Origin: an uncultured Bacteroidales bacterium
GTDB lineage: Bacteria; Bacillota_I; Bacilli_A; RFN20; CAG-826
DNA: 64,000 nt
Direction: 5' to 3'
Assembly (NCBI GenBank): GCA_963650805.1
Contig: CAVJMG010000001.1
Span: forward strand, 334,554 to 398,553
Positions 36,990 through 58,122 of the stretch are shown piece by piece. Under the pieces are notes generated by a model. The model was not told where the DNA came from and did no database searches. It saw nothing but the letters and a program-made list of their open reading frames with translations. A program made the translations under genes and the position numbers. The stretch's first letter is position 1, and every line of letters starts with the position of its first letter.

Positions 36990-38402
36990 TCAATCATCCC
37001 CGAAGAGGTCCCTGCTGTAGACTTTCTCCTCGCACCCTTCAAGGTCTTTCGAACGCCTGTTGGCGAGGATCACCGTAGATTCCCCTATAAACCTCTCCAA
37101 ATCGTTCTCCACCCTGCTTCCGAAGAATAAGGACCCATTCGGCAAGGAGGGCTCATAAACAATGACGTTAGCCCCTTTAGCCTTGACCCGCTTCATGACG
37201 CCTTGGATGCTTGAGGATCGGAAGTTATCCGAATTCGATTTCATAGACAAACGATAGACCCCTATGGTCACTTGCTTCTCCTTGTCCTGAGAATACACCG
37301 GGGAATCCCCATAGTCGTAATACCCGGCTTTCTTAAGTACTTGGGAAGCGATCCAATCCTTCCTCGTCGCATTCGAATCGACGATGGCCTTGATGAGGTT
37401 TTGGGGAACGTCATCGTAATTGGCAAGCAATTGCTTCGTGTCCTTCGGCAGGCAATACCCCCCATAGCCAAAGCTTGGGTTGTCGTAATAATGCCCAATC
37501 CTAGGATCTAGGGCCACTCCTTTGATGATTTCCTCTGAGGATAGCCCTTTGCTTTCGGCGTACGTGTCTAGCTCATTGAAGAAGGATACCCTTAAGGCCA
37601 AGTAGGTGTTGGAGAATAGCTTCACCGACTCCGCTTCCTTATAGCCCATCAGCAATAGGGGAACGTCTTGCTTAATGGCGCCTTCTTGCAGCAAGGAGGC
37701 GAACAAGCAAGCGTCTTCCTCATCGTTTTGATGCCCAACGACGATTCTAGAGGGATAGAGATTATCATAAAGGGCCTTCGATTCCCTGAGGAATTCCGGG
37801 GAGAACAGCAGACTCTTGAAACCATACCTATCCTGTATCGAAGAGGTGTACCCAACGGGCACCGTCGACTTGATGACGATCAAGGCGTCGGGATTGACTC
37901 TTTTAGCCAAGGAGAGGACCTCCTCGACCTTAGAGGTGTCGAAATAGTTCTTCGAAGGGTCGTAATTGGTCGGGGTGGAAACGATGATGACGTCAGCCTG
38001 CTTATAGGCGCTTTCCCCATCTAGGGTCGCATGAAGGTCTAAGGCTTTAGAGGAGAGATATTCTTCAATCTCTTTGTCCACAAGCGGAGACACCCCTGCG
38101 TTGAGCTTATCGACTTTCTCCTTGTTGACGTCTACGGCGAACACCTTGTTATGCTGGGCCAATAGAATTGCCAAAGATAGGCCGACATAGCCAATGCCTG
38201 CGACGGCGATGGTGAGTTTCTTCTTCTCCCCGTAATCGAGTAGACGCTTGCAGGCGGAAAGGTAGGAGGAGCTCCCCTCCTCCCCGGTTTCGAGGTATTG
38301 GTAGTTCCTCCTAGACATCTTGCATACGGAGGCGGCTTGAATCTGGGTAAGTCCCTTAGCGAGCCTTATTTGCTTTAAGTTCATGGGATTAGGGTAAAGC
38401 AT
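36990..38402 (-). CDS. ugd: UDP-glucose 6-dehydrogenase with an N-terminal XRE-type helix-turn-helix extension
   Basis: The Ugd core (…[23 protein letters not shown]… through …DLFGDD) is preceded in-frame by [35 protein letters not shown]…. No in-frame ATG, GTG or TTG lies near the core despite a GGGGAG SD-like sequence, so the fusion appears real. The start was chosen at M83; the ORF is open up to 38648. Confidence 0.75.
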
Positions 38403-38607
38403 GAATGCGCAACTGGCAAGGTTAATAAATAGGTTGCGCAATGGTTTTCCATATAGTTGCGCAAGGAAACCTTCGAACGTTCTCCAACCGTTTTTCCCGT
38501 ATTCGTCTTTCTTATTTACCGGTAATTTGAATGAAATTTTGTGCTGATTAGACAGTTTCTTTGAATTGGCAAATAATTCAGATTCCATCGCTATTTTTAG
38601 AATGAGA

Positions 38608-38674
38608 TTCCCTAAGTTGGCGCATTTCAATTCCCTAAGTTGGCGCATTTTAATTCCCTAAGTTGGCGTTTTTA
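38608..38674. repeat. Three tandem direct repeats of about 23 bp (ttccctaagttggcgcatttcaa)
   Basis: Read directly. They lie just upstream of the HTH-ugd start region. Confidence 0.85.
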
Positions 38675-38747
38675 CTTAGGATGTCGAACGGAAACAACGC
38701 CAGTTCCCCTTGGCTAGCACGTCCAATCGACCCGCGCCAGAAAAAAG

Positions 38748-38826
38748 TTGGAAAAATGCAAGATTGACCCATTTTTCGGTTGGAAAAATGCAATTTTAGG
38801 GGTGTTTTATGGTTGGAAAAATGCAA
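38748..38826. repeat. Three copies of gttggaaaaatgcaa at a period of about 32 bp
   Basis: Read directly. The plus-strand ORFs covering them are probably artefacts. Confidence 0.8.
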
Positions 38827-38962
38827 TTCAATTCCTTTTCCGAGAATTCAAAAGCCGAAAAAGTTACGATGGCTCCGAGTCATTTGCCAAATTAATCCCT
38901 GTGTTGACGCTAAAAGCGATTGGGACAAGGCAAAACGTCATCGTTTCAACCGAGTTTCTCGC

Positions 38963-39397
38963 CTATTTCTTATGCTTTTCTAGATACGACTCTTTTAGCC
39001 TATCTATCGCCATCTCCACGCTCATCGTATGGTAGGCCAAATAAGTAACGCGCATCGTCTTCGTGGGAGCTTGCCTATAGATTTCCTTGCTGCTTTCTCC
39101 TGTGTAAAAGTGCCATCTCCGATAAACGTATCCCATCCAATATAGAGTCTCGCGGTCGTAAGTCTCTCCGCCTATTTTCAGCTTGTCTTTAAGCTCATCG
39201 AGGATGCGTTCCATGATGTATTCTTTGCCCGCCCACTGCATGTGGTTGAATTCCGAGTCGAGGTCTCTAGCGATATCCGAGGTCATAAACGCTTTCACGA
39301 AGGAGTCACTATCTAAGCCCTTCTCAATGGACATTTCGAAAAGCTGCCCCTGCATGTCAGAAAGAGAGGATTGCAAAGCCCTATGCATGTAGCTCAC
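38963..39397 (-). CDS. Hypothetical protein, DUF3791-like partner of the downstream gene
   Basis: 144 aa. Overlaps the upstream gene by 17 nt. Confidence 0.4.
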   Translation of the reverse strand: MSYMHRALQSSLSDMQGQLFEMSIEKGLDSDSFVKAFMTSDIARDLDSEFNHMQWAGKEYIMERILDELKDKLKIGGETYDRETLYWMGYVYRRWHFYTGESSKEIYRQAPTKTMRVTYLAYHTMSVEMAIDRLKESYLEKHKK

Positions 39398-40034
39398 CCC
39401 TTAGGATTTCGTCGAAGTATCTTCCTTCTCTGCGGTATTTCAGCAGTGTCTCTTCCGTGAGGCTAATCCCCTCTTCTCTCCTAGCGATGCTTTTATCCCG
39501 AAGCGCCCCTAGCTCAAGAGGTGAAAGCTCTCTGCTAGAGATGATTTCAAGATGTTCGCAAGCCTTAGGCGTTTTGCAAACGTATTGATATCCCAAATCC
39601 AAAGCCGAGAGGCTACGGATGAGCGAGACATCGGTAATCTCCTTTTCGAAAAAGTTCTTCATCACGCGGTACATGCGATCGTCGGCGATATAGCCAAGCA
39701 CCACGTCGTATCCATCCGTAAGACTTGCGTACTTCTTATAGATTTCGCAGCCCTTGGCTTCGTCCATATAGCCCCTATAGCAGGCAATCAGTAGCGCCCA
39801 TTCAAGGTCCATCTTCATCTCCAAAACTTTAAGACCCGATAAATCGAGTTTCATCGTATATAAAACCGGTTTCTCCTCGCCACATATCAAAGTCAAAGCA
39901 TCCGCGGAATCGCTGCAGAGGTAAAAGCCTTTGCCAAAATCGCATGAAGCGCGACTTATCGGCGAGATTTTGCCCGCGAGGCCCTTCTTAGAGCCGTGAT
40001 AAACAATCAGGCTTTCGTCGTAATTGCGTTTCAT
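39381..40034 (-). CDS. DUF3990-like protein (putative toxin-like module)
   Basis: N-terminal …LIVYHGSKK… and …DFGKGFYLC… resemble the DUF3990 signature. Confidence 0.45.
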   Translation of the reverse strand: MKRNYDESLIVYHGSKKGLAGKISPISRASCDFGKGFYLCSDSADALTLICGEEKPVLYTMKLDLSGLKVLEMKMDLEWALLIACYRGYMDEAKGCEIYKKYASLTDGYDVVLGYIADDRMYRVMKNFFEKEITDVSLIRSLSALDLGYQYVCKTPKACEHLEIISSRELSPLELGALRDKSIARREEGISLTEETLLKYRREGRYFDEILRGELHA

Positions 40035-40055: not shown

Positions 40056-41381
40056 TTAGTTTCGCAGCAAGGCCAGAGGAACGACATAAACCCCATCCTC
40101 ACGTCGATAGGCGAATTTGCCCTTGGTAACAACCATCAAAAAGGCCGGGCTCTCTTTTTCTTGTTTTATGTCTTGGGAGAGTTTGACGAGCTTTTCGCAA
40201 GCTAGGTTTATGTCTTCTTCGTCCCCGAGCTTAATTTCAATTAACGCCCATTCCCCATCGTTGAATACGATGACGGCATCCGCTTCCCGGTCGTAGGAAT
40301 CCCTATAATGGTATATTTTGGCGCCTATGGAATCGGCGTAGACACGCAGGTCGCGAATGGCCAAAGACTCAAACAAGAAGCCGAATGTCCTCATGTCACG
40401 GAAAAGCGAATCCGGGGTTAGCCCCAGACAAGCCGTCGCAATCGAAGGATCGACGAAATAATGGGTGGGCTTGCTTCTGACCGCGGATTTGCTGCGAAGG
40501 TTGGTGTTCCATGCCTCCATTTCCTCAATAACGTAAAGCTTCCGCAAAGACAAAAGATATTTGGAGAAGGTCTCTCCGTCGATGGAGCAATATTCAGAAA
40601 GGTCCTTAAGGAGTTCCTTCTCCGCCGATTGTCCCCCGATGTGACGGGAATAGGAGCGCATAACCGCACGGGATTTCTGGGAATCCTGACGCAGAGGAAC
40701 GCTCTTTAACGAAAAAACGTCATCTTCGACCAGGCCCTCGTAGAAGTCGATTGCCTGTTGCAAAGCAACGGAGGAGTCTTCGCCAACGGATGTCGGCCAT
40801 CCGCCGCGACAAATATAAGAAGCATAATCTTCAATCGTCGCTTTCGAGATCGATGGGGTGAATGTCCCCGCCTTCAAGCCCGCAAGCGAGACCGTGCCTA
40901 GACTATCCCGGCTCTCAAAAAGCGACATTGTGCGCATTCTTTTGCGCACGATTCTCCCGGTCCCCGTATGCGTTTCATCCGCGCCGTCGCCCTTATTCGC
41001 GTCCAAGGCGTCGGTGACGCTCCCGGTCAAAATATATTGGCCGAATTCATCGTTTTCATCGATCGCGCTTTTTAGATCATCCCAAATGAAGGAGACAATC
41101 TGCCATTCGTCGATAAGGATGGGTTTTGGCCCGTAATTGAGAAAGTGCTGAATCGCGTTTTTGGCGAGCGCGACATATTCCTTGCGCGTTGAGCGAGGAA
41201 GCATGTTGATGGTTGTCGCCGCAAAACGCTCCGCGGTTCTAGATTTGCCACACCACTTAGGCCCCACAACCAAAACTGCCCCTTTGCTTTTAAGGGCAAA
41301 CTCCAATGTTTGGTCAAACAAGCGAGGGATATAGTCTTTTTTCATACATATGATTTTATGTGTGTCTATCAATGTTTTCAA
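40056..41381 (-). CDS. AAA+ ATPase with C-terminal DUF4143
   Basis: Walker A VLVVGPKWCGKSRTAE. 441 aa. Close paralogue of 50946..52226. Confidence 0.8.
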   Translation of the reverse strand: MKTLIDTHKIICMKKDYIPRLFDQTLEFALKSKGAVLVVGPKWCGKSRTAERFAATTINMLPRSTRKEYVALAKNAIQHFLNYGPKPILIDEWQIVSFIWDDLKSAIDENDEFGQYILTGSVTDALDANKGDGADETHTGTGRIVRKRMRTMSLFESRDSLGTVSLAGLKAGTFTPSISKATIEDYASYICRGGWPTSVGEDSSVALQQAIDFYEGLVEDDVFSLKSVPLRQDSQKSRAVMRSYSRHIGGQSAEKELLKDLSEYCSIDGETFSKYLLSLRKLYVIEEMEAWNTNLRSKSAVRSKPTHYFVDPSIATACLGLTPDSLFRDMRTFGFLFESLAIRDLRVYADSIGAKIYHYRDSYDREADAVIVFNDGEWALIEIKLGDEEDINLACEKLVKLSQDIKQEKESPAFLMVVTKGKFAYRREDGVYVVPLALLRN

Positions 41382-41394
41382 TGTTAAATCCTTC

Positions 41395-41457
41395 GTTTGT
41401 AGGTTTTTAAATCATTTGTTTGTAGGTTTTTAAATCCGATGTTTGTAGGATTTGCAG
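41395..41457. repeat. Two perfect copies plus one degenerate copy of gtttgtaggtttttaaatc at a 23-bp period
   Basis: Read directly, immediately upstream of the ATPase start. Confidence 0.8.
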
Positions 41458-41844: not shown

Positions 41845-42789
41845 ATGGAAAACACAGAACCTAAAATCCTATGCCGCTTGATCGCAGGAAAAGAGGCCGC
41901 CTCGCCTTTTGCAGAGGAAGCCCTCGCCTTTTTCCAAGAGGGAATGAGGCCTTTCTGCCACCAGTATTTCGCGGGGCTCATCCCCAACGCGAAGAAGGAA
42001 GAGATTGAAAGCGCGGCCTACGAGGCCTTCAAGAAGCTCGGGGAAACCTATTTGGGGCTCCGCAAAAAGGATTTTGACGCGTATGTCGAAGAGCATAAGG
42101 AAGAACATGATTCTGCTTTAAGCTCTTCTTTTTTCGCCTCATTCGAGGATCCTGAGCTCGCCTATAGGCTCTCGCTTCTTTCTGCCAACTACACCCTCTA
42201 TACCCGCATGGGAGACCAAGCTTTGATCGTGGACCTCGAATCCAATGTCCCCCTCTCCTATATAAAGGAGGAAGAGCCTATTGTCCTCCCCGAAGAAAAA
42301 GAAGAGGAGCCGGTTAAAGAAGAAGAACCCAAAGAAGAACCTCAGGAAGAGCCCAAGGAAGAGGGACCCGAGGAGGCTGAAGAAAGCGAGGAAGAGGCCG
42401 AAGAGGAGGAAAACCCCTTCGCTAACATCAAACGCCGCACCTTCTCCGAGAAGCTCAAGAAAGCCTCCCCTGAACTCAGGAAGAACTACAAAGCCATCAA
42501 GCAGGCGGCCATCGACTGCAAGCTTAAGGGTCGCGTCTCCAAAGCCGCGGACACCTATCACCTCGGCAGGAAGACCTATCTCAAAATCACCATCGCGGGC
42601 AAAACGCTCAAATGCTATTTCGCCGTCGACGCGAAGAACTACGCCGATACGGCGATCCCCTTGGAAGTCTCCGACAAGAAGGCTTATCAAGACACCCCCA
42701 CTTTGCTCCGCGTGAAGAGCTCCTTAGCTGTTAGGCGCGCGATCTCCATCATCTCCGACATGACCGCCGAGCCGAAGGAGAACGAATGA
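41845..42789 (+). CDS. Hypothetical cytoplasmic protein with a central acidic (E/P/K-rich) low-complexity linker; first gene of the TasA/SipW operon
   Basis: RBS ggagacaaattATG. No signal peptide. …EEEPVKEEEPKEEPQEEPKEEGPEEAEESEEEAEEEE…. 4-nt overlap with the next gene. Confidence 0.6.
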   Translation: MENTEPKILCRLIAGKEAASPFAEEALAFFQEGMRPFCHQYFAGLIPNAKKEEIESAAYEAFKKLGETYLGLRKKDFDAYVEEHKEEHDSALSSSFFASFEDPELAYRLSLLSANYTLYTRMGDQALIVDLESNVPLSYIKEEEPIVLPEEKEEEPVKEEEPKEEPQEEPKEEGPEEAEESEEEAEEEENPFANIKRRTFSEKLKKASPELRKNYKAIKQAAIDCKLKGRVSKAADTYHLGRKTYLKITIAGKTLKCYFAVDAKNYADTAIPLEVSDKKAYQDTPTLLRVKSSLAVRRAISIISDMTAEPKENE

Positions 42790-43289
42790 TCAAGAAAGGC
42801 GTTATCATAACCCTTTTCGCCCTGTCCGGGGTCGTTTTAGGCGCAACCGCCGCCATACCCGTTTGCTATGCCTTAAACGAGCAGTATCAAAACGTCGCCT
42901 CCTCGCAAAGTGACGGAAACGTCATGGTCAAGGACGAAGAGGTCCACCTCTCCACCGACGAGAACCCCCTGTTCCCCGGAGATAAGAGAACGCTGACGAT
43001 CGATCTCAAGCAAACGATTGAGAAGAGCAACAAAGTCAGCGTCTACTTCGATAAGTACTCAGGGCAGGGTTACGAATACCTCTCGCTGTCCATCAAAGAC
43101 GAGGAGCAGACCTATATGCCTGATGCCCTCATCGAAAGCGCGACGAGCGAGTCCCCTTGGGAATTCTCCATGAAGGTAGGCAAGCAAAGCGGCCTGAGCT
43201 TCGTCTACACCTTAAGCAAAGACGTCCCAAGCACTTACGAGGACCTCGCCTTCTCGTTCACGATGCATCTAAGGGTCAATTGGAGATAA
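42786..43289 (+). CDS. Membrane-anchored or secreted accessory protein (possible TapA-like partner)
   Basis: N-terminal MIKKGVIITLFALSGVVLGATAAIPVCYALNEQ hydrophobic segment with a SipW-cognate-like …YALN… motif. About 140-aa extracytoplasmic domain. Confidence 0.5.
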   Translation: MIKKGVIITLFALSGVVLGATAAIPVCYALNEQYQNVASSQSDGNVMVKDEEVHLSTDENPLFPGDKRTLTIDLKQTIEKSNKVSVYFDKYSGQGYEYLSLSIKDEEQTYMPDALIESATSESPWEFSMKVGKQSGLSFVYTLSKDVPSTYEDLAFSFTMHLRVNWR

Positions 43290-43302
43290 AGGAGAAACAC
43301 TC

Positions 43303-43575
43303 ATGCTCGTATTAATCATCTGCATCTGCGTCTTAGGCTTAGCGGTGTCGGGGTATCTGACCTACGCCGGCATCGACTCGCTCATCAAAAACAAAAATGA
43401 GCCAAAGCCGGTGACGATGACGCCAAAACCCAGTTTATATCGAGTGAGGGCATACCCATTCGTTTATAAAGGAGAAGACAGCCAAAAGCCCGAAGGTCTC
43501 TTCTCCGCTTCCATCCTTCACAAAGACGAGGGGAAGCAAAAAGAAACCGAAGAGGGCTTAGAAGAAAGGAGGTAA
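43303..43575 (+). CDS. Small membrane protein (one N-terminal transmembrane helix)
   Basis: MLVLIICICVLGLAVSGYLTYAG…. Tightly packed between operon genes. Confidence 0.4.
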   Translation: MLVLIICICVLGLAVSGYLTYAGIDSLIKNKNEPKPVTMTPKPSLYRVRAYPFVYKGEDSQKPEGLFSASILHKDEGKQKETEEGLEERR

Positions 43576-43578
43576 CAA

Positions 43579-44202
43579 ATGAAAAGCACGCACATCAAAG
43601 CATTGCTCATCGCTTCAGGCGTTGCCGCGCTAGCTTTAGGCGGAACAGTCGCAGGAACGTTCGCCTTGTTCCAAAGGAACACCCAAGTGGTGACCCACGT
43701 CAAGGTCGGGAACCTCAACTTCAAGTTCAGCCGCACCAACCTCAAGTACAAAGCGCTCAGCGATAGCACGGGCTACCTCGAAGAGAAGGAAGACAAGACC
43801 GTCGTCGACTTAAGCGAAGACGGATCGAAGGCCTTCGATCTCGCTAGCTTAGCCCCGGGCAGCGAAGTGGCGTCCACCTTCGAGCTCGAGAACATCGGGG
43901 GAACCGCCTTCAAGACGAGCCTCGACCTTCTTAACGTCGAGATCAAGAAGGATGGGGTGACCGCGACCTCGGTCGATTGGCTCCAGTACGTTTCCGTCTC
44001 CTTGATCGAAGGGGAGAAGAAAACAGACTTCACCTTAAAAGACCTCAAGACAGTCAGCCTAATCGATTTGCCGAAGGGGCAGAAGACAAACTTCGTCATG
44101 AAGCTGTCCTTCGACGCCGAGCACATCGAAAACGAAGCGCAGGACCATGACCTCAGCTTCGCGATAAGGCTCAGCTGCACCCAACTCTTAACCCAAGCCT
44201 AA
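43579..44202 (+). CDS. TasA/camelysin-family secreted protein with a SipW-cognate signal peptide (paralogue 1)
   Basis: …ALALGGTVAGTFALFQRNT…, then …LAPGSEVASTFELENIGGTA…, which parallels TasA (GTWAAF…, NLKPGDKLTKDFQFENNGSL). RBS ggaggtaacaaATG. Confidence 0.75.
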   Translation: MKSTHIKALLIASGVAALALGGTVAGTFALFQRNTQVVTHVKVGNLNFKFSRTNLKYKALSDSTGYLEEKEDKTVVDLSEDGSKAFDLASLAPGSEVASTFELENIGGTAFKTSLDLLNVEIKKDGVTATSVDWLQYVSVSLIEGEKKTDFTLKDLKTVSLIDLPKGQKTNFVMKLSFDAEHIENEAQDHDLSFAIRLSCTQLLTQA

Positions 44203-44214
44203 TCGGAGCAAACC

Positions 44215-44775
44215 ATGAAAAAGAACAAAGTCTTAATGGCCTCCACCATCGTCGCCTTATTGGCCGCCAGCGGAGCGGTCGCCGGAAGCTACGCCTACTT
44301 CAGCGCTTCCAAAGACGCCCCCGCCACGGTCAAGATGGCCAAAGTCGACCTCGAGGTCTCCATCAAAGAAAATTCCCTAGAGCTCTACTCCATGGACAAG
44401 AAGCAAGAGGGAAGCAAATTCGAAAACGGCGGAGAAGCCAAATTCACCACGATCACCCTTAATGGAACGTCGGTGAAAGCATTGTCCCTAGACCGCGTAT
44501 CCCCCGGGGATGCGGTGAAATTCAATTTGGGGATAAACAACCTCTCCAACATCGCCGTCGCCTACAAAATCAGCATCGCCTTAGCCGACGCCACGGAAGA
44601 TTGCCCCTTCACCCTCACCGGGGAAGTGGCCGATTGGCAGAAGATCGCCGCCGCGGAAGCAATTCCCGACAAGCCCGTCTCCATATCCTTCCCCAAGGAA
44701 AAGGAGAACGAGTATCAGGATAAATCCTATACCATCCTGATCAACGTCAACGCGATCCAGGCTAACGCCGTCTGA
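44215..44775 (+). CDS. TasA/camelysin-family secreted protein (paralogue 2)
   Basis: …LLAASGAVAGSYAYFSAS… and …VSPGDAVKFNLGINNLSNIA…. C-terminal …AIQANA motif shared with the other paralogues. Confidence 0.75.
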   Translation: MKKNKVLMASTIVALLAASGAVAGSYAYFSASKDAPATVKMAKVDLEVSIKENSLELYSMDKKQEGSKFENGGEAKFTTITLNGTSVKALSLDRVSPGDAVKFNLGINNLSNIAVAYKISIALADATEDCPFTLTGEVADWQKIAAAEAIPDKPVSISFPKEKENEYQDKSYTILINVNAIQANAV

Positions 44776-44801
44776 TTCGAAAATCCTTAGAAAGGTAAAA
44801 T

Positions 44802-46199
44802 ATGAAACTTACAAAAAAAATCACGAAAACCCTGATCCTCTCCGGCGCGACAGCCCTTGCCTTCGGCACCGTTGCAGCGGGCACCACCTACGCTTTATTC
44901 ACCTCCAACGCGGAGAGTGAAGTCGTCGTCACCTCCGGTAAGGTCAGCGTGACTTCCGAAATCAAGGTCAAAGAGAAGTATCGCCCCGCTTTGATCAGCC
45001 AAGAAGAAGGGAACGAGATCGTTGAATCCAGCAACATCGCCGAAACCTCCGACCTCGAAGTCAGCGTCGAAAACAACAACGTCAAAATCGCCAAGATGCT
45101 CCCTGGCGACAAAGTGACCCTCACCGTCACCCCGAAGAACGAGAGCAACGTGAAGATCAAATATCGCGAAACCTATTCCTTCATCGGAGACGTCGCTAGC
45201 GACCTCAAAATCACCGGCGACGAAAAGATGGTCAAGCTTTGGACCGAACTCGGCGTCGGAGAAGCCATCGAGGCTTATGACATCGTCGTTGAGCTCCCCA
45301 CCACCGCCGTGGGCGAAATCGAAGAAACCACCATTAAACTAGGCATCGAAGCCGTCCAGGGCAACGCCCAAGTGGTTGACGAAGTCGTCAAAACGGAAAA
45401 AGAGCTTCAAGACGCAATCGACGCTCTGAAAACTTCCACCGACAAAAACCTCAGCGTCACCCTCTCCGAGGACCTTGCCCTAACCGCTCCCTTGGAAGTC
45501 AACGGGAACGTCACCATTTACGGAACCACCAAAGAAGATGGTAGCAAGACCAAAATCACCGCCCCTTCTGATGGCGCTGAGAATCAGCGCAGCATAACCG
45601 TTAACGACAACACCGATCCGGTCTCCTTGACTCTTGTTGGCATCGATGTCGAGGGGCCGACCACAGGCTCTGAAACTCGCGGCATATCGCTCGCAGCGAA
45701 CAAAGACCTCACCCTCATCATGGACGATTGCAGCATCTCAACGAATTACTATGCGCTGAATCTTGCGTCTGGAAACGAAAAAGCCAACATTTACATCCGC
45801 AACAGCACCTTAAAGGGTTGGGCCGCCGTGAACGTATGGTCACCAAACAACATCAGCAAAGCGGTTTTCGAAAACTGCACCCTGATTGGTGATAGCATCT
45901 CAAGGGAGGTCTTCCCCACCATCAGCTTGTACGAATGTGATAACAGCGAATTCACTTTCAAAGGCTGCACTATCAAAGCAAACGAACTTGGAACCAGCAA
46001 AGACGACATCAAACAGTTATTCTTCTACAGCGACGCAAAAAACAGCAAAGTCACTTTCAGTGATTGCAGTTTCTACAAAACATTCACAGATATCGGAGAA
46101 ATTCAATTATCAGGCTCCGAAGCTGCAAGTTTGATGTACGCGTCCGAATCCAGTTCTACGACAATCATCGACGGCGTTTCCTACGTTTACGAAGATTAA
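44802..46199 (+). CDS. TasA-like N-terminal domain fused to a C-terminal parallel β-helix-like passenger domain (paralogue 3)
   Basis: AAGTTYALFTSNAES signal and …MLPGDKVTLTVTPKNESNV…. The C-terminal 270 aa have repeated N/D/G-C-T/S-I/L/F turns (NCTLIGD, GCTIKAN, DCSFYK). Confidence 0.7.
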   Translation: MKLTKKITKTLILSGATALAFGTVAAGTTYALFTSNAESEVVVTSGKVSVTSEIKVKEKYRPALISQEEGNEIVESSNIAETSDLEVSVENNNVKIAKMLPGDKVTLTVTPKNESNVKIKYRETYSFIGDVASDLKITGDEKMVKLWTELGVGEAIEAYDIVVELPTTAVGEIEETTIKLGIEAVQGNAQVVDEVVKTEKELQDAIDALKTSTDKNLSVTLSEDLALTAPLEVNGNVTIYGTTKEDGSKTKITAPSDGAENQRSITVNDNTDPVSLTLVGIDVEGPTTGSETRGISLAANKDLTLIMDDCSISTNYYALNLASGNEKANIYIRNSTLKGWAAVNVWSPNNISKAVFENCTLIGDSISREVFPTISLYECDNSEFTFKGCTIKANELGTSKDDIKQLFFYSDAKNSKVTFSDCSFYKTFTDIGEIQLSGSEAASLMYASESSSTTIIDGVSYVYED

Positions 46200-46227
46200 A
46201 TAGCCGCTAGGCTAAAAAGGAGTTTCT

Positions 46228-48426
46228 ATGAAACTTACAAAAAAAATGACGAAAGGACTGATCCTCTCCGCTTCCGCGGCCCTGGCATTCGGGGCCGTGG
46301 CGGCCGGGACGACCTATGCCTTATTCACCTCTAACGCGGAGAATTCCGTGAGCGTCAGCTCCGGTAAGATCTCCTTGAAAAGCGAAATCCTCAATCTCAA
46401 GCTCTATTCCTTAAGCGAAGAGACTGGCGAGATCGTTCCTCTTGAAAGCGAAGATACCTTCACCCTTGGAGGCACCGCGACTATTGATGGAACCACCCTC
46501 AAGCTCGACAAAGTCGTTCCTGGCGACAAAGTCGAATTCGAGATCAAGGTCACCAACGAGTCCAACGTCGACATCAAGTTCCGCGAAGTGTTCAAGACCG
46601 TCAAAGATACCGGCCTTGGCAGCGGGCTTGAATACACGATCGACGAAGAGACCTACGATGGCGGAACCATCATCACCGACTATGAGCTTTGGGAAGCCAA
46701 GGCTGCGGAGCAAGAAAAGACCGTCAAGGTCTCCATCGCTCTCCCCAAGAGCGCCGAGAACATCTATCAGGAGAAATCCTGCGAGCTCTCCTTCAATTTC
46801 GAGGCCATCCAGAAGAACGCGAAGACGGAAGACGTCGATTCTACCGTTTATCAGATCTACACGCCGACCGATTTAAGCGCCTTCGCTAATAAGGTCAGCG
46901 CCGGAACCTTCACCTGCGATAAGGTCATCTTGATGGATGACATCGATATGGATGGACTTAGCTACATGTCACCGATGTACGCTAGGGAAAATACCGCTAT
47001 CGAATTCGATGGAAACGGCAAAACCATCAAGAACCTCGTCGCTCTCGAAAACAGCGATAAATCCGGCAACCGCGGAGCTGGCTTATTCGGAAAAGTGGGA
47101 CACGGAAGCCTAAACATCCATAATCTCAATATGGAGAACGTCACCGTTTCCGGCAGCTTCACCGTCGAGGGCGATCAGCACTTAGGCGGAGGGGCTATCG
47201 TCGGAACGAGTGACAGCGGCGTAAGCGCCATTGACATCACCAACGTTTCGGTCACTGGCGTTAGCGTCAAAGGCGTTAAGTACGCCGGCGGAATCGTTGG
47301 ATACAGCTCCATTGGCGGAACAGATACGATTAAAAACGTGACCGTCAAAGATGCTGAAATTTCCGGTTACACAGCCGGTGGCGTCATCGGCCAAGTCGGC
47401 GGCGGAAAAGCCGTCATCAATGGAGTCGAAGGCAGCGGCATCGTTGTTGATGGATATAAGAGAGAGGGCGGAATGGTTGGTGCAAATTCCGGTACAAGTC
47501 TCACCATCACCTACGACGAAGCCGAATACTCCTCCTCCATTTCCGGAGAGGCCTTTGGCAACAGAGGAACCATCGTCGGGCTCACCGGGGACACCACCGT
47601 CAACGGCAATCAATACCACACCGCTATCAGCACCGATCAAGTCAAAGGGATTAAGGCCGCTTCGGACAAGCTCAACATCGTCGAAATCTTTGAAGGCACG
47701 TACTCCTTCGGTGGAGCAACTAACCTCCAAAGCGTCAAAGGCGGCGTTGAAGTCCGCGGCATTGGCGACAAAACCAAGATCAAATGGATGCAAGCTGGCG
47801 GAACAGATGTGGGATATGGGTTCTCCGGCACGAATCTGACGATGAAAAACGTCAGCGTCGGAACCGAAGTCACCGGCAACTATCTCGGTTTCCCCGGCGC
47901 CGCTTCCGTTTCGTTCGAAGACTGCGTCTTCAATGTCACCAAAGCCAACGAATCCTTCCGTTACTGGGGCGATGGGGCCGTCAACTTCAAAAATTGCAAG
48001 TTCGATAGCACCAAAGCCGAAGACAGCAACATGTTCACCTACGGCGGCAAGAGCTTCTACTTCGAAGGCTGCGAATTCATCAGCGACGAAGCCGCGATCA
48101 AGCTATATAGAAACGCTAGTCTGACCGACAGCGTCGAAGTGCCCGTCACCATCACCGGCTGCACGTTCAAAAACGTTCATGAAGGCACATGGAGCGATAG
48201 CGATCTGCCGAAGAGGACCGTCCTCAGCATCGATACCGATAATGCCGCCGATAAGACCCACTACAAGGTCACGATGACCAATTCTAGCTACAGCGGCAAC
48301 TACTCCGACGGCATCCTCGCCGACAGGAAAGGCTTGTTTGGAGTCAGGCAACAGGACAAAGTCAAGAAGAGCCTAATCACCTTCACCCTTGACGGAACCA
48401 CGCTCGACTTGGGCCTACCTGAGTAA
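46228..48426 (+). CDS. TasA-like N-terminal domain + GLUG-motif repeat region + β-helix-like C-terminal domain (paralogue 4, 732 aa)
   Basis: The N-terminus is near-identical to paralogue 3. The mid-region has repeated AGGIVGYS, GGVIGQVGGG and GGMVGANSG units (GLUG-type). The C-terminus has DCVFNV, NCKFDS, GCEFIS and GCTFKN turns. Confidence 0.7.
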   Translation: MKLTKKMTKGLILSASAALAFGAVAAGTTYALFTSNAENSVSVSSGKISLKSEILNLKLYSLSEETGEIVPLESEDTFTLGGTATIDGTTLKLDKVVPGDKVEFEIKVTNESNVDIKFREVFKTVKDTGLGSGLEYTIDEETYDGGTIITDYELWEAKAAEQEKTVKVSIALPKSAENIYQEKSCELSFNFEAIQKNAKTEDVDSTVYQIYTPTDLSAFANKVSAGTFTCDKVILMDDIDMDGLSYMSPMYARENTAIEFDGNGKTIKNLVALENSDKSGNRGAGLFGKVGHGSLNIHNLNMENVTVSGSFTVEGDQHLGGGAIVGTSDSGVSAIDITNVSVTGVSVKGVKYAGGIVGYSSIGGTDTIKNVTVKDAEISGYTAGGVIGQVGGGKAVINGVEGSGIVVDGYKREGGMVGANSGTSLTITYDEAEYSSSISGEAFGNRGTIVGLTGDTTVNGNQYHTAISTDQVKGIKAASDKLNIVEIFEGTYSFGGATNLQSVKGGVEVRGIGDKTKIKWMQAGGTDVGYGFSGTNLTMKNVSVGTEVTGNYLGFPGAASVSFEDCVFNVTKANESFRYWGDGAVNFKNCKFDSTKAEDSNMFTYGGKSFYFEGCEFISDEAAIKLYRNASLTDSVEVPVTITGCTFKNVHEGTWSDSDLPKRTVLSIDTDNAADKTHYKVTMTNSSYSGNYSDGILADRKGLFGVRQQDKVKKSLITFTLDGTTLDLGLPE

Positions 48427-48446
48427 TCTAAACTCTACATCTTAGA

Positions 48447-48482
48447 CACAGGGGGCTATAATAAAGTCCCCCTGTGTTTTCT
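48447..48482 (+). terminator. Stem-loop (10-bp stem acacaggggg/ccccctgtgt) plus T-tract between the structural genes and sipW; possible partial terminator or attenuator
   Basis: acacagggggctataataaagtccccctgtgttttct read directly. Confidence 0.4.
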
Positions 48483-48486
48483 AACT

Positions 48487-49239
48487 ATGGAACAAGACAA
48501 AGAAGCAAATAGCAACAAAGGCAAAAGAAAAGTAGCCAAAATCATTGGAAACTCCGTTTTCTACACCATTCTTGGCCTGCTTACCGTTTTCGCCGCATTT
48601 TCGATTACCTCTAGGATTACCGGAGGTAGGATTGGCGATAGCCAGTATCTTGTCGTCATCTCCGGATCAATGGATGGCGAAAGGCAAGAAGAATATCCCA
48701 TCAAGACCATTCCGGTGAAATCCCTCATCAAGGTGGATTTGATCAAAGACGGCGAAGAGAAGGAATTCTATTCTTCCCTTAAGAAGGGGGACGTTTTGAC
48801 GTTTAACTACGCTTCTTTGAATAACGTGACCATCACCCACAGAATCATCGAGGATCCGTTGCTATTAAGCGATGGAACCACCTATCAAATTAAACTCAAA
48901 GGGGACGCGGTCGAGGGGAATGAGATTCAAACCCTTTATAGCGATGGCAGAACCGGAGAGGTCATCGGCAAAGTCTCCTTCGTGTCCTTGCCCTTAGGAC
49001 AGATGTACTTCTTCATGTCGAGCAAGATGGGAACCCTGGTATTGGTAATCCTCCCCTGCAGCGCGGTCTGCATCTACGAGATCGCCAAAATCGTTTACAT
49101 CCTCTCAGAGAACAAACGGAAAAAGAAGGAAGAGGCCGCTCAGGCAGTCACTTCAAGCAAGGACAAAGAGATCGAGGAGCTCAAAGCCAAGCTCGAGGCG
49201 ATGCAAAAGCAAAGCCAAGAAGAAAAGAAAGAGGAGTGA
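48487..49239 (+). CDS. sipW: Signal peptidase I of the SipW (archaeal/ER, S26B) type, with a charged coiled-coil C-terminal tail
   Basis: VVISGSMDGE (catalytic Ser box) and GDVLTFNYASLNNVTITHRIIEDP (His box), compared with B. subtilis SipW SGSMEP / …VTHRIV…. N- and C-terminal transmembrane helices. The tail is …KRKKKEEAAQAVTSSKDKEIEELKAKLEAMQKQSQEEKKEE. Confidence 0.8.
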   Translation: MEQDKEANSNKGKRKVAKIIGNSVFYTILGLLTVFAAFSITSRITGGRIGDSQYLVVISGSMDGERQEEYPIKTIPVKSLIKVDLIKDGEEKEFYSSLKKGDVLTFNYASLNNVTITHRIIEDPLLLSDGTTYQIKLKGDAVEGNEIQTLYSDGRTGEVIGKVSFVSLPLGQMYFFMSSKMGTLVLVILPCSAVCIYEIAKIVYILSENKRKKKEEAAQAVTSSKDKEIEELKAKLEAMQKQSQEEKKEE

Positions 49240-49378: not shown

Positions 49379-50663
49379 CTATTTTTTAAGGATTTTCCAA
49401 TACCCCGATTTATTCGTCCCCGCCCGTTCTATCCTTTTTTCAGCTTTTAAGTCTTTGATGATTTTAACGACTCTGGTTCTGCCTAAGCCGGATAGCTCGC
49501 ATAGCCCACTTAGGGTGAGGCTTGGGTTTTGATTCAATAAGACAAGTATCTTGTTATGGCTTGGGCTCAAATTAGCCTCCAACCGCTCAAAGCTTGGTTG
49601 GAACGCAAAGGGGAAGGTCACTACGATGTGGTTCTCAAAGAGAGAGCGCCTCTTTTCCGTATTTGGAGATTATCAAAGGCACGCCGTGGCCGGTTTGCTC
49701 AATGTAATCGAGCTGCCCCATTATTTTCATCAAACTCATATTTATTGGATGGCTCACGCCTTGGAAAAATTCCTCTTTCGAAAAATCTAAAGGCAGGCCC
49801 CCCGTAGATACAATTTCAATTCGATTGGAGAAAATGTAGATTGCCGGAGGCACGTTTCTCGCCCATCTATTGTGCAAGCATGCGTTCGTCCAAGCCTCGT
49901 CTAAACAAGCTTCGTCAAAGAGCTTTGTTTCTTTTCTCTCTAGGCCTTGATTTAGATTCACTCTCGTTTCGTTGAACGAAGAGGCGAACTCATACGCTTG
50001 CCTCATCGCCAAAAGCATGCATTTGTATCCAAATTCGTTTCTGGAGATCATCTCCGTCTTGTCCTCGCCCCTGAAACGGACGACCTTAATGGAGCAGTTG
50101 TTATTGTCGGACAAAATTTCGGCAATGTAGTTGTATGTCCCCTTGGACGTTAATAAGCCCATATTCTTTGCGAATGTGGCGTTATCGCTTGAAAAACCAT
50201 GCGCTACATACAAAGACTTAAGCCCATTAAAGGTCAAATCTTGATCCAAAGACTCTATTTTTTCGGCGGCGAGGTTGGAATTGGTAAAGAACAAATCTCC
50301 GAGCTGCTCCGGCAATATCTTTTTATTTTCGCTACCAACGCGAATAAGATAATTTCCAAAACAGGCATAGGGTTTCTTGTCTCCGCTTGCTTCAACCTCA
50401 ATCACCGTTTTATCTCCATGGGCAATAGGAGTTATTTTGGCGAGTACGGAAAGAACAATTGCTTCTTTGATTCTTGTACCGATTTTCTTAATCGTTTCTC
50501 GGCTAAAATCTTTCGCCCCTTCGATTTCGGCGTTATCGAGAACACCAAAAGCAACCTTCCCATGACCGCTTTTATTAAGCGTGGCAGAGAGCGCCTCCAA
50601 GCCACGGTCTAATTGACTTGGGGATTTCTTGAATTCTACCGTTTCGTTTTCGTATCTCTGCAA
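49379..50663 (-). pseudogene. AlbA_2 (Schlafen-like) + HATPase_c_4 + wHTH putative transcriptional regulator, split into two ORFs by a frameshift near 49621-49635
   Basis: N-terminal …ENETVEFKKSP… (PF04326-like). The C-terminal ORF ends …RVVKIIKDLKAEKRIERAGTNKSGYWKILKK (wHTH). Confidence 0.55.
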
Positions 50664-50945: not shown

Positions 50946-52226
50946 TCAGTTCTTCAAGCAAGCAAGCGGGACAACCCAAACGCCGTCTTCCCTTTGATAG
51001 GCGTATTCCGTCGCGGTGATGACCATAAGGAACTCGGGCTTCTTCATTCTTTGATCATCAATCAAAGAAGCCAAGCGGAGCAGGTTTTTCGCTCCTTCTT
51101 CAATGCGGTCTTGATCGTGCAATTTAATTTCGAACGCGGCCCATTTGCCGTTATAAAGATGAATCACGGCATCGGCTTCAAGCCCGTTTCTATCGCGATA
51201 ATGGTAAACCTCGCCACCGAGGGTATCGGCGTATATCTTCAAGTCCCTCACGGCCAGATCTTCGAAAACTAAGCCAAACGTGTTCAAATCATTAATCAGA
51301 TCTTCTTTATAAGCTCCCAAGGCCCGGCAAGCAATGGAGGGGTCCACGAAATGCCTTGTCGGGGAAGTTCTTATGGTCGTTTTGCTTCTTAGATTCGGGC
51401 ACCAAGCTTTTATGTCATCTATCACGTACAATTTCTCGAAGGCCTTGATATAGGACTTAACGGTCTCATCGCTGATGAGCTTTTGGTTGCCGCCATTGAT
51501 GTCCGAAAGTATGGTTTCAACGCTGCATTCGGTCGATACGTTGCGGGCGTAGGAGCGCAAGAACAATTTGACTTTATCAATATCTCTAGAAACGTTATCG
51601 ACGCTTCTTATATCGTTTTCGACCAAGCCGTCATAATAGTTCTTCGCAATTTCCATCGACACCTTTTCGCTTTGCCCAACCGATTTTGGCCAACCGCCTC
51701 GGCAACAATAAAAAGCGTAATCGAGCAGTTTCTTATCGCTAAAGGCAGGATTCACCTTTTCATTTCGAAAAAGAGAGGCAAGGGATATTTGCCCGTTGCT
51801 ATCAAGCGACTCATAAAGGCTCATAGGGCGCATAACCAAAGAAGAAATCCGCCCTACTCCGCTATGCTGCTTTTGCTTTTCTTCTTCATCCATTAATGGA
51901 GTTGCGCTTCCAGTCAGGATGAATTGCCCAAATTCATCCCGTTTATCAATCTCATATCGAATATCGTCCCAAATAAACGGAACAATTTGCCATTCGTCGA
52001 TCAGTCTCGGCGTATCGCCGGATAAAAAGAATTCAGGGGCGTTTTTTGCCAAAGCTATATTTTGGTCCCTGTCTTTCCGATTCTGCATATAAACAGAGCT
52101 CTTCGCGATGCGCTCTGCGGTCGTTGATTTCCCACACCATTTGGGACCCTTTATCCAAACCGCCCCAGAACTCTCTAACTTTTCTTTCAGCAGCGTATCC
52201 GCGCATCTATTCAAATATTGCTTCAT
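50946..52226 (-). CDS. AAA+ ATPase with DUF4143
   Basis: VWIKGPKWCGKSTTAE Walker A. The C-terminus …VVPLACLKN is paralogous to 40056..41381. Confidence 0.8.
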   Translation of the reverse strand: MKQYLNRCADTLLKEKLESSGAVWIKGPKWCGKSTTAERIAKSSVYMQNRKDRDQNIALAKNAPEFFLSGDTPRLIDEWQIVPFIWDDIRYEIDKRDEFGQFILTGSATPLMDEEEKQKQHSGVGRISSLVMRPMSLYESLDSNGQISLASLFRNEKVNPAFSDKKLLDYAFYCCRGGWPKSVGQSEKVSMEIAKNYYDGLVENDIRSVDNVSRDIDKVKLFLRSYARNVSTECSVETILSDINGGNQKLISDETVKSYIKAFEKLYVIDDIKAWCPNLRSKTTIRTSPTRHFVDPSIACRALGAYKEDLINDLNTFGLVFEDLAVRDLKIYADTLGGEVYHYRDRNGLEADAVIHLYNGKWAAFEIKLHDQDRIEEGAKNLLRLASLIDDQRMKKPEFLMVITATEYAYQREDGVWVVPLACLKN

Positions 52227-52257
52227 GGGTATTCCCTCAATTGAATTTTAGAATCTA

Positions 52258-52349
52258 TTTGGCAATTTGGCAACGTTTCATTTGGCAATTTGGCGGTGTT
52301 TCATTTGGCAATTTGGCGGTGTTTCATTTGGCAATTTGGCAATCTCTTA
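52258..52349. repeat. About 3.7 tandem copies of a 23-bp unit (tttggcaatttggcggtgtttca)
   Basis: Read directly, 30 bp upstream of the ATPase start. The core ttggcg…tttca resembles the 38608-38674 repeats. Confidence 0.9.
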
Positions 52350-54871: not shown

Positions 54872-55044
54872 AATGGAGTCGATGAGGCTCTTATCGGAAG
54901 GGTTTATCCTATCGTTTATTCTGTCATTTATTCTATCATTTATTGTATCACAGACCTTTGGGAGTCACGTGCGGAGAAACCCAAAAAAACGGCAGCCACC
55001 ACTGCTTCGACAACCCTATAAACGTAGGAGGCAAAACTTAAAAG

Positions 55045-56348: not shown

Positions 56349-56394
56349 ATATGTGTTACAAACTTCGAATCTTTTTGAGTTTGTAACACATATT
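56349..56394. repeat. Second copy of the same palindrome family (atatgtgttacaaact-N14-agtttgtaacacatat)
   Basis: Perfect 16-bp arms. It lies between the MATE 3' end and the ATPase 5' end. Confidence 0.7.
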
Positions 56395-56491
56395 TGAAAT
56401 CTCTTGTGTCTGATAAACTTGAAGGAATGGGCCTAAAAAATGTAGGGAAACACCAAAAAGAAGTGGTCCTGTACGCGATTTAACCAAAATA

Positions 56492-57895: not shown

Positions 57896-58002
57896 ATCTC
57901 CCTCCTATAGGCCAACACGGGATTATAAGGAAGGGTGGTGAAGTTGGCCATAAAAAGATTGCGTTTAACAATAGCTCCTAGCAATTCCATTAATAAGTTG
58001 GA

Positions 58003-58095
58003 ACTTTGCGGTTTACGGATATTTTCAACAAAAACTACTTTGCGGTTTTTATGGTTTTACTGAGAAATATACTTTGCGGTTTTTGGTTTTTATAG
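58003..58095. repeat. Three direct repeats (core actttgcggttttt) at a 34-bp period upstream of an ATPase gene
   Basis: Read directly. The array ends about 30 bp before the start codon. Confidence 0.75.
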
Positions 58096-58122
58096 CATAA
58101 TTTATACGAAGGAATCGAGATA

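Follow-up and report, generated by a model that had tools for sequence, protein, structure and literature searches.

The gene considered here lies on the minus strand of a 64-kb stretch of contig CAVJMG010000001.1 (referred to throughout as the window) and encodes a probable UDP-glucose 6-dehydrogenase (Ugd) preceded, in the same polypeptide, by a predicted helix-turn-helix (HTH) domain; we call the protein HTH-Ugd. Directly upstream of its start codon are three TTGCGC hexamers, boxes 1 to 3, and a predicted promoter, and farther upstream lie two sets of direct repeats, an array of 23-nucleotide (nt) units (Array A) and a 15-mer present in three copies (Table 1). In a preliminary description of the same DNA, the repeats had been called iteron-like and put forward as candidate operators of an autoregulated enzyme, with a relic HTH as the alternative. 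We report below that the fusion is genuine and conserved and that the boxes, not the repeats, are the conserved element of this gene family, and we consider how the HTH might act on them.

Table 1. Features of the HTH-Ugd locus and its surroundings; positions are those of the window, and negative numbers count from the ATG of HTH-Ugd
Feature	Position	Strand	Remarks
HTH-Ugd coding sequence	36990..38384	minus	464 amino acids (aa), ATG 38382-38384 (MNLKQIRL...)
Core of the predicted UDP-glucose 6-dehydrogenase: Rossmann domain, central domain, UDP-binding domain	36990..38216	minus	Pfam, TIGR03026, Foldseek
XRE/Cro-type HTH, four helices	38217..38384	minus	residues 1-56
In-frame extension of the open reading frame upstream of HTH-Ugd	38385..38648	minus	non-coding leader/spacer, unconserved, stop-closed in relatives
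Predicted -10 hexamer TACCCT	38391..38396	minus	-12..-7, ends 6 nt before ATG
TTGCGC box 3	38407..38412	minus	-28..-23, within predicted promoter spacer; -28 in 8/9 lineages, -27 in L069
Predicted -35 hexamer TTGCCA	38414..38419	minus	-35..-30
TTGCGC box 2	38436..38441	minus	-57..-52, 23 nt from box 1; within 1 nt in 9/9 lineages
TTGCGC box 1	38459..38464	minus	-80..-75; within 2 nt of -80 in 9/9 lineages
Array A, three 23-nt units (CGCCAACTTAGGGAATTnAAATG)	38607..38675	minus	orphan array of DUF4143-ATPase promoter type, facing HTH-Ugd
Three copies of TTGCATTTTTCCAAC in a degenerate 32-33-nt tandem unit	38747..38828	minus	
DUF3791 (38963-39397) and DUF3990 (39381-40034) pair	38963..40034	minus	PADLOC PDC-M42B and PDC-M42A, candidate defence; missing here in L004
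DUF4143/AAA_14 ATPase (PADLOC PDC-S01)	40056..41345	minus	likely start ATG 41345; 429-aa call in L066 agrees
Array B, three 23-nt units	41384..41453	minus	ends 39 nt upstream of ATPase start
Second DUF4143/AAA_14 ATPase (PDC-S01)	50946..52226	minus	47% identical to first ATPase
Array C, 3.7 units of 23 nt (GCCAAATTGCCAAATGAAACACC)	52257..52343	minus	ends 31 nt upstream of ATPase start

Gene structure and translation start

The minus-strand open reading frame (ORF) that holds the gene runs from 36990 to 38648 and would encode 552 aa; as the preliminary description had read it, no stop intervenes between the HTH and the Rossmann motif GIGYVG, some 30 residues further on. Its observation that no conventional start codon lies next to the enzyme core was likewise borne out, as ATG, GTG and TTG are all missing from the stretch bounded by an internal ATG (38318), coding for Met23 of the 464-aa protein inside the HTH, and by a TTG (38174) past the GxGxxG NAD-binding motif. 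Lacking a start codon of its own, the Ugd core therefore cannot be produced alone.

A homologue search with the 464-aa protein returned 15 clusters of 464–468 aa (68–92% identity, 100% query coverage), all of which align from Met1 of HTH-Ugd and start M-x-L-x-x-(I/L)-R. Orthologues with the same fusion thus exist, and instead of an internal start with the fusion missing, the relatives carry the fusion together with stops directly upstream of the HTH ATG: the upstream frame closes after 3 codons in lineages L004–L006 and after 30 codons in L001–L003. Homology to an ATPase or to any other protein was not detected in the upstream extension of the window ORF.

The protein might nevertheless begin elsewhere, either at Met23 (ATG 38318), which would truncate the HTH, or at 38588 or 38648, giving 532–552 aa. 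Automatic annotation leans this way, with the 552-aa ORF called here (in L066, another assembly with identical sequence, the gene call is simply the longest ORF) and a Met23 start called for the L207 orthologue; moreover, the frame in the window is open for 88 codons upstream of ATG 38384, and no Shine-Dalgarno (SD) sequence precedes that ATG. Yet the extension is unconserved and stop-closed in the relatives tested (L001–L006), L207 keeps the first 22 codons intact and conserved despite its gene call, and a conserved -10 element ending 6 nt before the ATG accounts for the absent SD. We judge these other starts, like the companion proposal that the HTH is a decaying relic, to be highly improbable. 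On the comparative evidence, the true HTH-Ugd gene is 36990–38384, encoding 464 aa, whereas the 552-aa ORF is an over-extension and the 443-aa call is also wrong; the window protein starting at ATG 38384 was not on record, the pipeline having called the 552-aa ORF in its place.

The enzyme core

Three Pfam domains, each above its cut-off, cover the Ugd part of the protein (PF03721, 1e-33; PF00984, 1e-25; PF03720, 2e-9). TIGR03026 scored 311.6 bits against a cut-off of 189.8, and the best NCBIfam model was PRK15057, Ugd of the Escherichia coli type, with 519 bits, which is under its equivalog cut-off of 757. HTH-Ugd was modelled by AlphaFold2 with a predicted local distance difference test score (pLDDT) of 80.5, and Foldseek matched the model to Ugd of Klebsiella pneumoniae (3pid/3pjg, 54–56% identity) and UDPGDH of Streptococcus pyogenes (1dli, 52%), with template modelling (TM) scores, by target, of 0.90–0.92.

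In an alignment of 23 sequences, the NAD motif GxGYVG (G63...G65-Y66-V67-G68), the stretch EAESxKLFxNTYLA (E250-A251-E252...K255...N259...L262-A263) and the segment with the catalytic cysteine, GGYCLPKD (G308-G309-Y310-C311-L312-P313-K314-D315), were invariant. The Ugd part is thus complete and predicted to be catalytically intact; its sequence places it in the UDP-glucose/GDP-mannose dehydrogenase family, where it is probably a UDP-glucose 6-dehydrogenase. Only a short linker of about 7 residues separates it from the HTH.

The N-terminal HTH domain

All 12 orthologous N-termini examined matched HTH_3 and HTH_31 (best E-value 2e-7), and the window HTH, scanned alone, scored 25.9 bits against the HTH_3 cut-off of 23. 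The AlphaFold2 model of the HTH by itself (pLDDT 89.1) has helices at residues 3–10, 14–20, 25–33 and 39–50. When this model was compared with the PDB by Foldseek, 50 of the 50 best matches were XRE/Cro proteins (HipB, ClgR, CapH, C.Esp1396I and 434 Cro among them), at a probability of ~1, a query-normalised TM score (TMq) of 0.6–0.7 and a root-mean-square deviation of ~2–3 Å over 48–49 residues. A PDB profile search with the HTH also gave almost exclusively XRE-type proteins, all of them weak matches (best E 0.018). As modelled, the fold of the N-terminal domain is of the XRE/Cro type. The preliminary description had credited the protein with a complete Cro/C1-type HTH of about 55 aa; the type holds, while the domain measures 56 aa and has four helices instead of the canonical five, the usual fifth XRE helix being missing.

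The third, or recognition, helix (S24-R25-R26-N27-x-Q29-Y30-L31-E32) is invariant in 12 sequences, and the invariant residues of the HTH as a whole are M1, L3, R7, K10, L12, Q14, A17, A18, C21, M23–N27 and Q29–E32. Between the window and L002, the ratio of non-synonymous to synonymous substitution rates (dN/dS) was 0.04 in the HTH, against 0.05 in the core; for other pairs dS was saturated or very high, and dN of the HTH did not exceed that of the core. These values indicate purifying selection of equal strength on the HTH and on the enzyme core. The earlier suggestion of a relic does not fit this picture, because the low dN/dS, the invariance of recognition-helix residues 23–27 and 29–32 and the conservation of the fusion all speak for a domain that is being maintained.

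Distribution of the fusion

We searched a profile of this short HTH against 1.84 billion cluster representatives and found three further representatives at the 50% identity level (P0266, P0283 and P0380) that combine the short-HTH subtype with UDPG_MGDP_dh domains. At that level, the HTH-Ugd fusion is present in no fewer than four clusters. A second type of fusion, of 492–494 aa and exemplified by P0037 ('nucleotide sugar dehydrogenase [Eubacteriales bacterium]'), has the same order of an XRE HTH followed by Ugd and a core 60–66% identical to that of the window. It differs from the short type in its canonical five-helix HTH of ~75 aa, which is unrelated in sequence, in a longer linker, in an SD-like GGGGG before the ATG and in the absence of TTGCGC boxes, and it probably represents an independent fusion event. 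The fusion had been described beforehand as unusual; it is genuine and conserved, and at the same time less singular than implied, given its occurrence in at least four clusters and the existence of the long-HTH type.

A scan of genome contigs with the N-terminal 157 aa yielded 59 loci, of which 48 had a readable Ugd N-terminus and served as a negative control set. None of these 48 close Ugd relatives, all from GTDB species representatives, carries the fusion. Two loci that looked like full-length fusion matches, L013 and L043, were ruled out as alignment spill-over into the upstream gene.

The short-HTH subtype also occurs apart from Ugd. The top matches of its profile are proteins of ~150 aa with the HTH at residues 1–56 and an uncharacterised C-terminal part (P0257–P0259), and P0309 (378 aa) joins the subtype (MTIKELRKTKGLSQAECAQYLGMSLRNYQIYE) to a domain that Pfam identifies as an AAA_14 ATPase.

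Three conserved TTGCGC boxes

The DNA upstream of the fused genes was anchored on the ATG, and the boxes were read from there in nine lineages (the window, L002/L206, L004, L067, L069, L071, L082, L083 and L207). Across all nine, the boxes keep their positions while the remaining upstream DNA is unalignable; they are spaced 23 and 29 nt apart, such that box 1 and box 3 are separated by 52 nt or about five helical turns, and none of the boxes (27 or more) departs from T at the first position. In the window and in each of seven relatives' loci tested, this is the sole cluster of at least three TTGCGC within 80 bp. No second triplet occurs in ~120 kb of DNA from box-bearing genomes, and TTGCGC-N17-TTGCGC has a single site in the whole window. 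Within 100 nt upstream of the unfused Ugd genes, by comparison, two or more boxes were found in 0 of 48 cases and a single box in 1 of 48, and there are no TTGCGC boxes upstream of the long-HTH fusion in L084.

The triplet is therefore a conserved cis-element of this gene family and exclusive to the short-HTH type of fusion. A hexamer and a recognition helix, both invariant, thus travel together through lineages in which silent sites are saturated. The within-locus control speaks against a motif shared by promoters in general, while leaving room for a dedicated separate regulator, a point to which we return below.

We also considered whether the boxes are themselves -35 elements of sigma-70 promoters and rejected this, as by eye no -10 element lies 16–18 nt from any box, and box 3 sits in the spacer of a conserved TTGnnn/TAnnnT pair. 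As a separate observation, the 23-nt spacing of boxes 1 and 2 equals the period of the ATPase arrays described below, some of which (L077–L079) have units opening with TTGCGCCAAAT; this may be a coincidence or may reflect a binding geometry common to both.

A predicted promoter for leaderless mRNA

A TTGnnn hexamer falls within -37..-29, starting at about -35, in all eight tabulated lineages, and the single printed stretch for L207 (ATTGTCT) also has a TTG; TAnnnT occupies -12..-7 in 9/9 lineages. In the window the order is TTGCCA, 17 nt, TACCCT, 6 nt and ATG. An SD-like 4-mer within -20..-3 was found in none of the eight tabulated lineages, compared with 22 of 39 other genes of the window. 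Given a TTGnnn at -35, a TAnnnT at -12 to -7 and no SD, the simplest and most likely reading is a sigma-70-type promoter that would produce a leaderless mRNA beginning at the ATG, which would also explain the lack of a ribosome-binding site. Box 3, lying within the -35/-10 spacer, occupies a classical repressor position.

Near the repeat sets described below, a scan of 38000–39100 for terminators and sigma-70 promoters found none of the former and, of the latter, a single plus-strand candidate no better than chance. A riboswitch or other structured RNA upstream of the gene was rejected, since an Rfam scan of 38200–39100 (E<=1) returned only a chance small nucleolar RNA match of 22.6 bits against a gathering threshold of 45.

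The repeats upstream and the arrays of DUF4143 ATPase genes

Both repeat sets lie where they had been described, at 38607–38675 and 38747–38826. They resemble plasmid iterons in being short direct tandem repeats, and the resemblance is one of looks only: replication genes and origin features are not present, the neighbourhood having neither a rep gene nor an AT-rich unwinding region nor DnaA boxes, and the surroundings are a chromosomal polysaccharide locus and a defence island.

What the 23-nt repeats most resemble are arrays in front of ATPase genes. Array A (period 23, 2.7 copies and score 117 in Tandem Repeats Finder (TRF); unit identity 100/96/83%) had previously been likened, through a shared motif, to repeats upstream of the ATPase at 52258, and the likeness goes beyond that motif to period, orientation and register. 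TRF detected a period-23 array upstream of 11/11 DUF4143 ATPase genes examined from one subfamily, ending 26–63 nt before the start codon. In nine metagenomic loci with relatives of the 52226 ATPase (51–81% identity), the arrays comprise 2.5–5.7 units of exactly 23 nt, and arrays homologous to Array C precede the ATPase orthologues in L072, L073 and L080. The unit sequence varies with the ATPase lineage. Read directly, a -35-like hexamer provided by the last unit precedes a TAAAAT or TATAAT by 17 nt; in Array C this is TTGCCA, 17 nt before TAAAAT. Array A is in register with these arrays (Array C of the window, L077 and L073), with CGCCAA-TT...AAT-AA invariant, and is nearest to the array of L077–L079 (GCGCCAAATTAGGTAAT vs GCGCCAACTTAGGGAAT); direct reading also shows that ATTCTAAAA(A/T)T follows the last unit in both Array A and Array C. 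With the DUF4143/AAA_14 ATPase genes (COG1373, PDC-S01), Array A thus shares the period, orientation, register and core of the arrays. Their arrays precede an ATPase, whereas Array A is followed by none, and we call it an orphan because the next gene is HTH-Ugd. An ATPase remnant between Array A and the Ugd promoter was not detected by tblastn with 124 ATPase proteins (best E ~0.05), nor was a relic after Array A by blastn and tblastx against the ATPase region of L207 (nothing better than E ~0.05).

The second set consists of three exact copies of GTTGGAAAAATGCAA at 38747–38826, spaced 32 and 33 nt. Allowing up to 2 mismatches, the window has 4 matches to the 15-mer against 0.38 expected; it is a single copy in L002 and absent from the other lineages, it matched no Rfam family, and a scan of viral contigs gave single chance matches only. 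By this comparison, the set is a recent, local triplication specific to the lineage of the window. A 22-nt imperfect inverted repeat (38561–38582/38874–38895) bracketing both sets was considered as a feature like a miniature inverted-repeat transposable element and set aside, since a 9-nt seed in 700 nt is, by a rough estimate, about what chance would give.

Could these two sets, 3x23 bp and 3x15 bp, nonetheless be distal operators of the fused HTH, as first proposed? Both lie upstream of HTH-Ugd and in its orientation. Units 2 and 3 of Array A, read directly, contain ATGCGC, which differs from TTGCGC by a single base and recurs at the 23-nt interval that also separates boxes 1 and 2, and the nearest relative, L002, keeps two units of Array A at 100% identity over 42 nt, compared with 82% identity to the window in coding DNA. 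However, the sets span 223–442 nt upstream of the Ugd ATG, with Array A ending 223 nt before it, and they are missing from seven of the nine lineages (L004, L067, L069, L071, L082 and L083 altogether, L207 at that position), although the recognition helix is invariant there. The first T of the box is invariant, whereas Array A has an A in its place; Array A is homologous to arrays of ATPase genes that have no HTH-Ugd nearby; and the 15-mer is single-copy in L002. We regard a role of the repeats as operators as quite unlikely. Of the original proposal of an autoregulated enzyme with its own operators, autoregulation remains plausible, and the repeats are not the conserved candidate operators.

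A more fitting origin for Array A is suggested by L207, where a period-23-like array (1425–1520, with the similar core CAAACTTGGGAAA), a frameshifted DUF4143 ATPase, the three boxes and HTH-Ugd follow one another. We suggest that ATPase cassettes have a hotspot of insertion between HTH-Ugd and its ancestral neighbour, that Array A is the leftover of one such cassette, and that L207 likely represents an intermediate state toward the orphan array. The first ATG after Array A (38586–38588, in frame with Ugd) opens ATGGAAT, like the ATPase gene of L207 (~1570, ATGGAATAT...), and may be the relic start of a lost ATPase or a chance occurrence.

A recent survey (PMC12988326) describes PDC-S01 as an ATPase fused to a domain of the PD-(D/E)XK superfamily and ranks it fourth by frequency among the defence candidates of prokaryotes, most of which still await validation. 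DUF4143 has been classed in the same superfamily, its function being unknown (PMC3424549). The searchable literature yielded no mention of period-23 arrays at DUF4143/PDC-S01 genes; such arrays could be an autoregulatory or sensing site of this candidate defence gene.

Genomic context

In the relatives, HTH-Ugd resides in surface-polysaccharide loci, usually divergent from or directly after an epimerase gene, and the short intergenic region between the two is filled by the boxes. In the window, the epimerase operon that is the divergent neighbour in several relatives lies at ~52.4–54.7 kb, and between it and HTH-Ugd are a seven-gene cluster (41845–49239), also found in L004, and two islands that are absent from L004; L004 has neither an island nor repeats next to HTH-Ugd. 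Their genes include those for DUF4143/AAA_14 ATPases (PDC-S01) and for a DUF3990/DUF3791 pair (PDC-M42), the latter in the island inserted beside HTH-Ugd. The second island separates the seven-gene cluster from the epimerase operon; it comprises the second ATPase and, next to it, a protein combining a Schlafen AlbA_2 domain with HATPase_c_4 (49635–50663, minus strand) that had no PADLOC match.

The seven-gene cluster, on the plus strand, has a higher G+C content of ~52% and a strong AT skew, and is kept beside HTH-Ugd in L004/L005. Apart from a weak Peptidase_M73/camelysin-like match (43579–44202) it has no Pfam match, and its genes may specify a protein system that is secreted or forms surface fibres.

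Two further DUF4143 ATPases of the window, at 58123–59493 (plus strand) and 55083–56312 (minus strand), are distant, being 22–26% identical to the other ATPases. Upstream of the former, in 57990–58122, three ACTTTGCGGTTT repeats at ~34 nt spacing recall the layout of the 15-mers, with no link established between the two; the last of these repeats lies 17–18 nt before CATAAT, and a scan of viral contigs for relatives of this ATPase found none. Upstream of the latter, 56355–56400 holds a 15-nt perfect inverted repeat (ATATGTGTTACAAAC...GTTTGTAACACATAT), and a 12-nt tandem repeat in four copies (TTTATTCTATCA) occupies 54903–54950, between an Epimerase_2 gene and the 3' end of that ATPase gene.

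A putative autoregulating enzyme

The fusion and its conservation, the selection on the HTH, the box triplet with its association and the -35 and -10 hexamers without an SD are direct observations at this locus and its relatives. From them we infer that HTH-Ugd would bind DNA and act as an autoregulating 'trigger enzyme', a reading that we consider reasonably probable: the HTH of the enzyme, dimeric by homology, would bind the TTGCGC boxes and repress its own leaderless promoter. In the ancestral arrangement, it would also repress the divergent epimerase operon. The abundance of the enzyme, or perhaps its ligand state, would then set the level of expression, and expression of the surface-polysaccharide locus would be coupled to it.

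Several points weigh against this proposal. The window HTH scores 20.9 bits in the context of the full-length ORF, under the Pfam HTH_3 gathering cut-off of 23, and binding of the HTH to DNA, or to these boxes in particular, is read from sequence. XRE dimers usually bind inverted half-sites, whereas the boxes are direct repeats; a core TGCGCA/TTGCGCAA is palindromic in many of them, though not in all. The -10 hexamers, predicted from sequence, are weak (TACCCT). Array A could be an active upstream promoter that adds to Ugd expression, as the window and L002 keep it. Finally, the box-bearing lineages are apparently related gut Bacillota, and therefore a clade-specific factor other than the HTH could recognise the boxes.

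This last possibility is the main rival, the repeats as operators, a relic HTH and other start codons all being unlikely. It holds that the boxes are read by a separate regulator or by the transcription machinery, and that the HTH binds other DNA, tethers the enzyme to the nucleoid or mediates protein contacts. Direct repeats at 23/29-nt spacing would be unusual for XRE dimers, co-inheritance within one related group could mimic co-evolution, and the occurrence of the HTH subtype on ~150-aa proteins and on an AAA_14 ATPase means that proteins of similar specificity may exist. A separate reader of the boxes would, however, have to accommodate the co-occurrence of the triplet with the short-HTH fusion in 9/9 lineages, its absence from the 48 unfused genes and from the long-HTH fusion, the joint invariance of recognition helix and hexamer across lineages with saturated synonymous sites, and the lack of any other triplet in the ~120 kb surveyed. 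We hold it to be unlikely, and repression of its own promoter by HTH-Ugd to be the better account.

A bolder extension, which we put forward tentatively and with more doubt than confidence, is that HTH-Ugd represents a new class of trigger enzyme that senses its occupancy by substrate, product or NAD(H) and, by way of the XRE domain, represses a leaderless promoter, with the box spacing matching the separation of the N-termini in an elongated dimer, and that the period-23 arrays are an obligatory cis-element of PDC-S01.

If these proposals are true, HTH-Ugd would provide direct metabolic feedback on the synthesis of capsule or cell-wall polysaccharide in gut Bacillota, and the period-23 arrays would point to control of the PDC-S01 ATPase-nuclease. 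The comparative data alone already give a clean and testable prediction, made up of a 56-aa HTH, three fixed hexamers and a predicted leaderless promoter. The arrays, as the constant companion of one DUF4143/PDC-S01 subfamily, may also explain stray 'iteron-like' repeats in defence islands. Among the titles and abstracts returned by a full-text literature search, we found no paper on an HTH-Ugd-type protein, or on an enzyme doubling as a transcription factor that is built on a nucleotide-sugar dehydrogenase, which takes the committed step toward UDP-glucuronate (capsules, surface glycans).

Comparison with known systems

HTH-Ugd resembles the stand-alone Ugd enzymes (3pid/3pjg, and HasB/UDPGDH 1dli) over the whole core, with 52–56% identity, and keeps all of their catalytic and cofactor motifs. 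The stand-alone enzymes, in contrast, start MKI(A/T)V(A/I)G(T)GYVG, without an N-terminal domain, and the same is true of the 48 unfused relatives. Where the regulation of stand-alone Ugd enzymes is known, it works through separate regulators or tyrosine phosphorylation (reviewed for Bacillus subtilis in PMC4304235) and not through a fused HTH.

By carrying DNA-binding-type and enzyme domains in one polypeptide, HTH-Ugd is built like the trigger enzymes, a concept reportedly due to Commichau and Stuelke. Enzymes that double as transcription factors are few and instructive, with BirA, NadR and PutA as examples. BirA and PutA are enzymes with a DNA-binding domain, a winged HTH in BirA and a ribbon-helix-helix in PutA; they autoregulate their own operon, and ligand or redox state switches their DNA binding. 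Neither is a nucleotide-sugar dehydrogenase, and ligand control of HTH-Ugd is, by comparison, purely hypothetical. Closest in architecture is NadR, the NAD regulator of enterobacteria, in which an N-terminal Cro/C1-type HTH precedes a nucleotide-metabolising enzyme (nicotinamide mononucleotide adenylyltransferase/ribosylnicotinamide kinase), the same domain order as in HTH-Ugd, and which, depending on the level of metabolites, represses the genes of its pathway. The enzyme folds and the pathway of NadR are unrelated to those of Ugd, and its operators are inverted repeats, whereas the candidate sites of HTH-Ugd are the three direct TTGCGC boxes.

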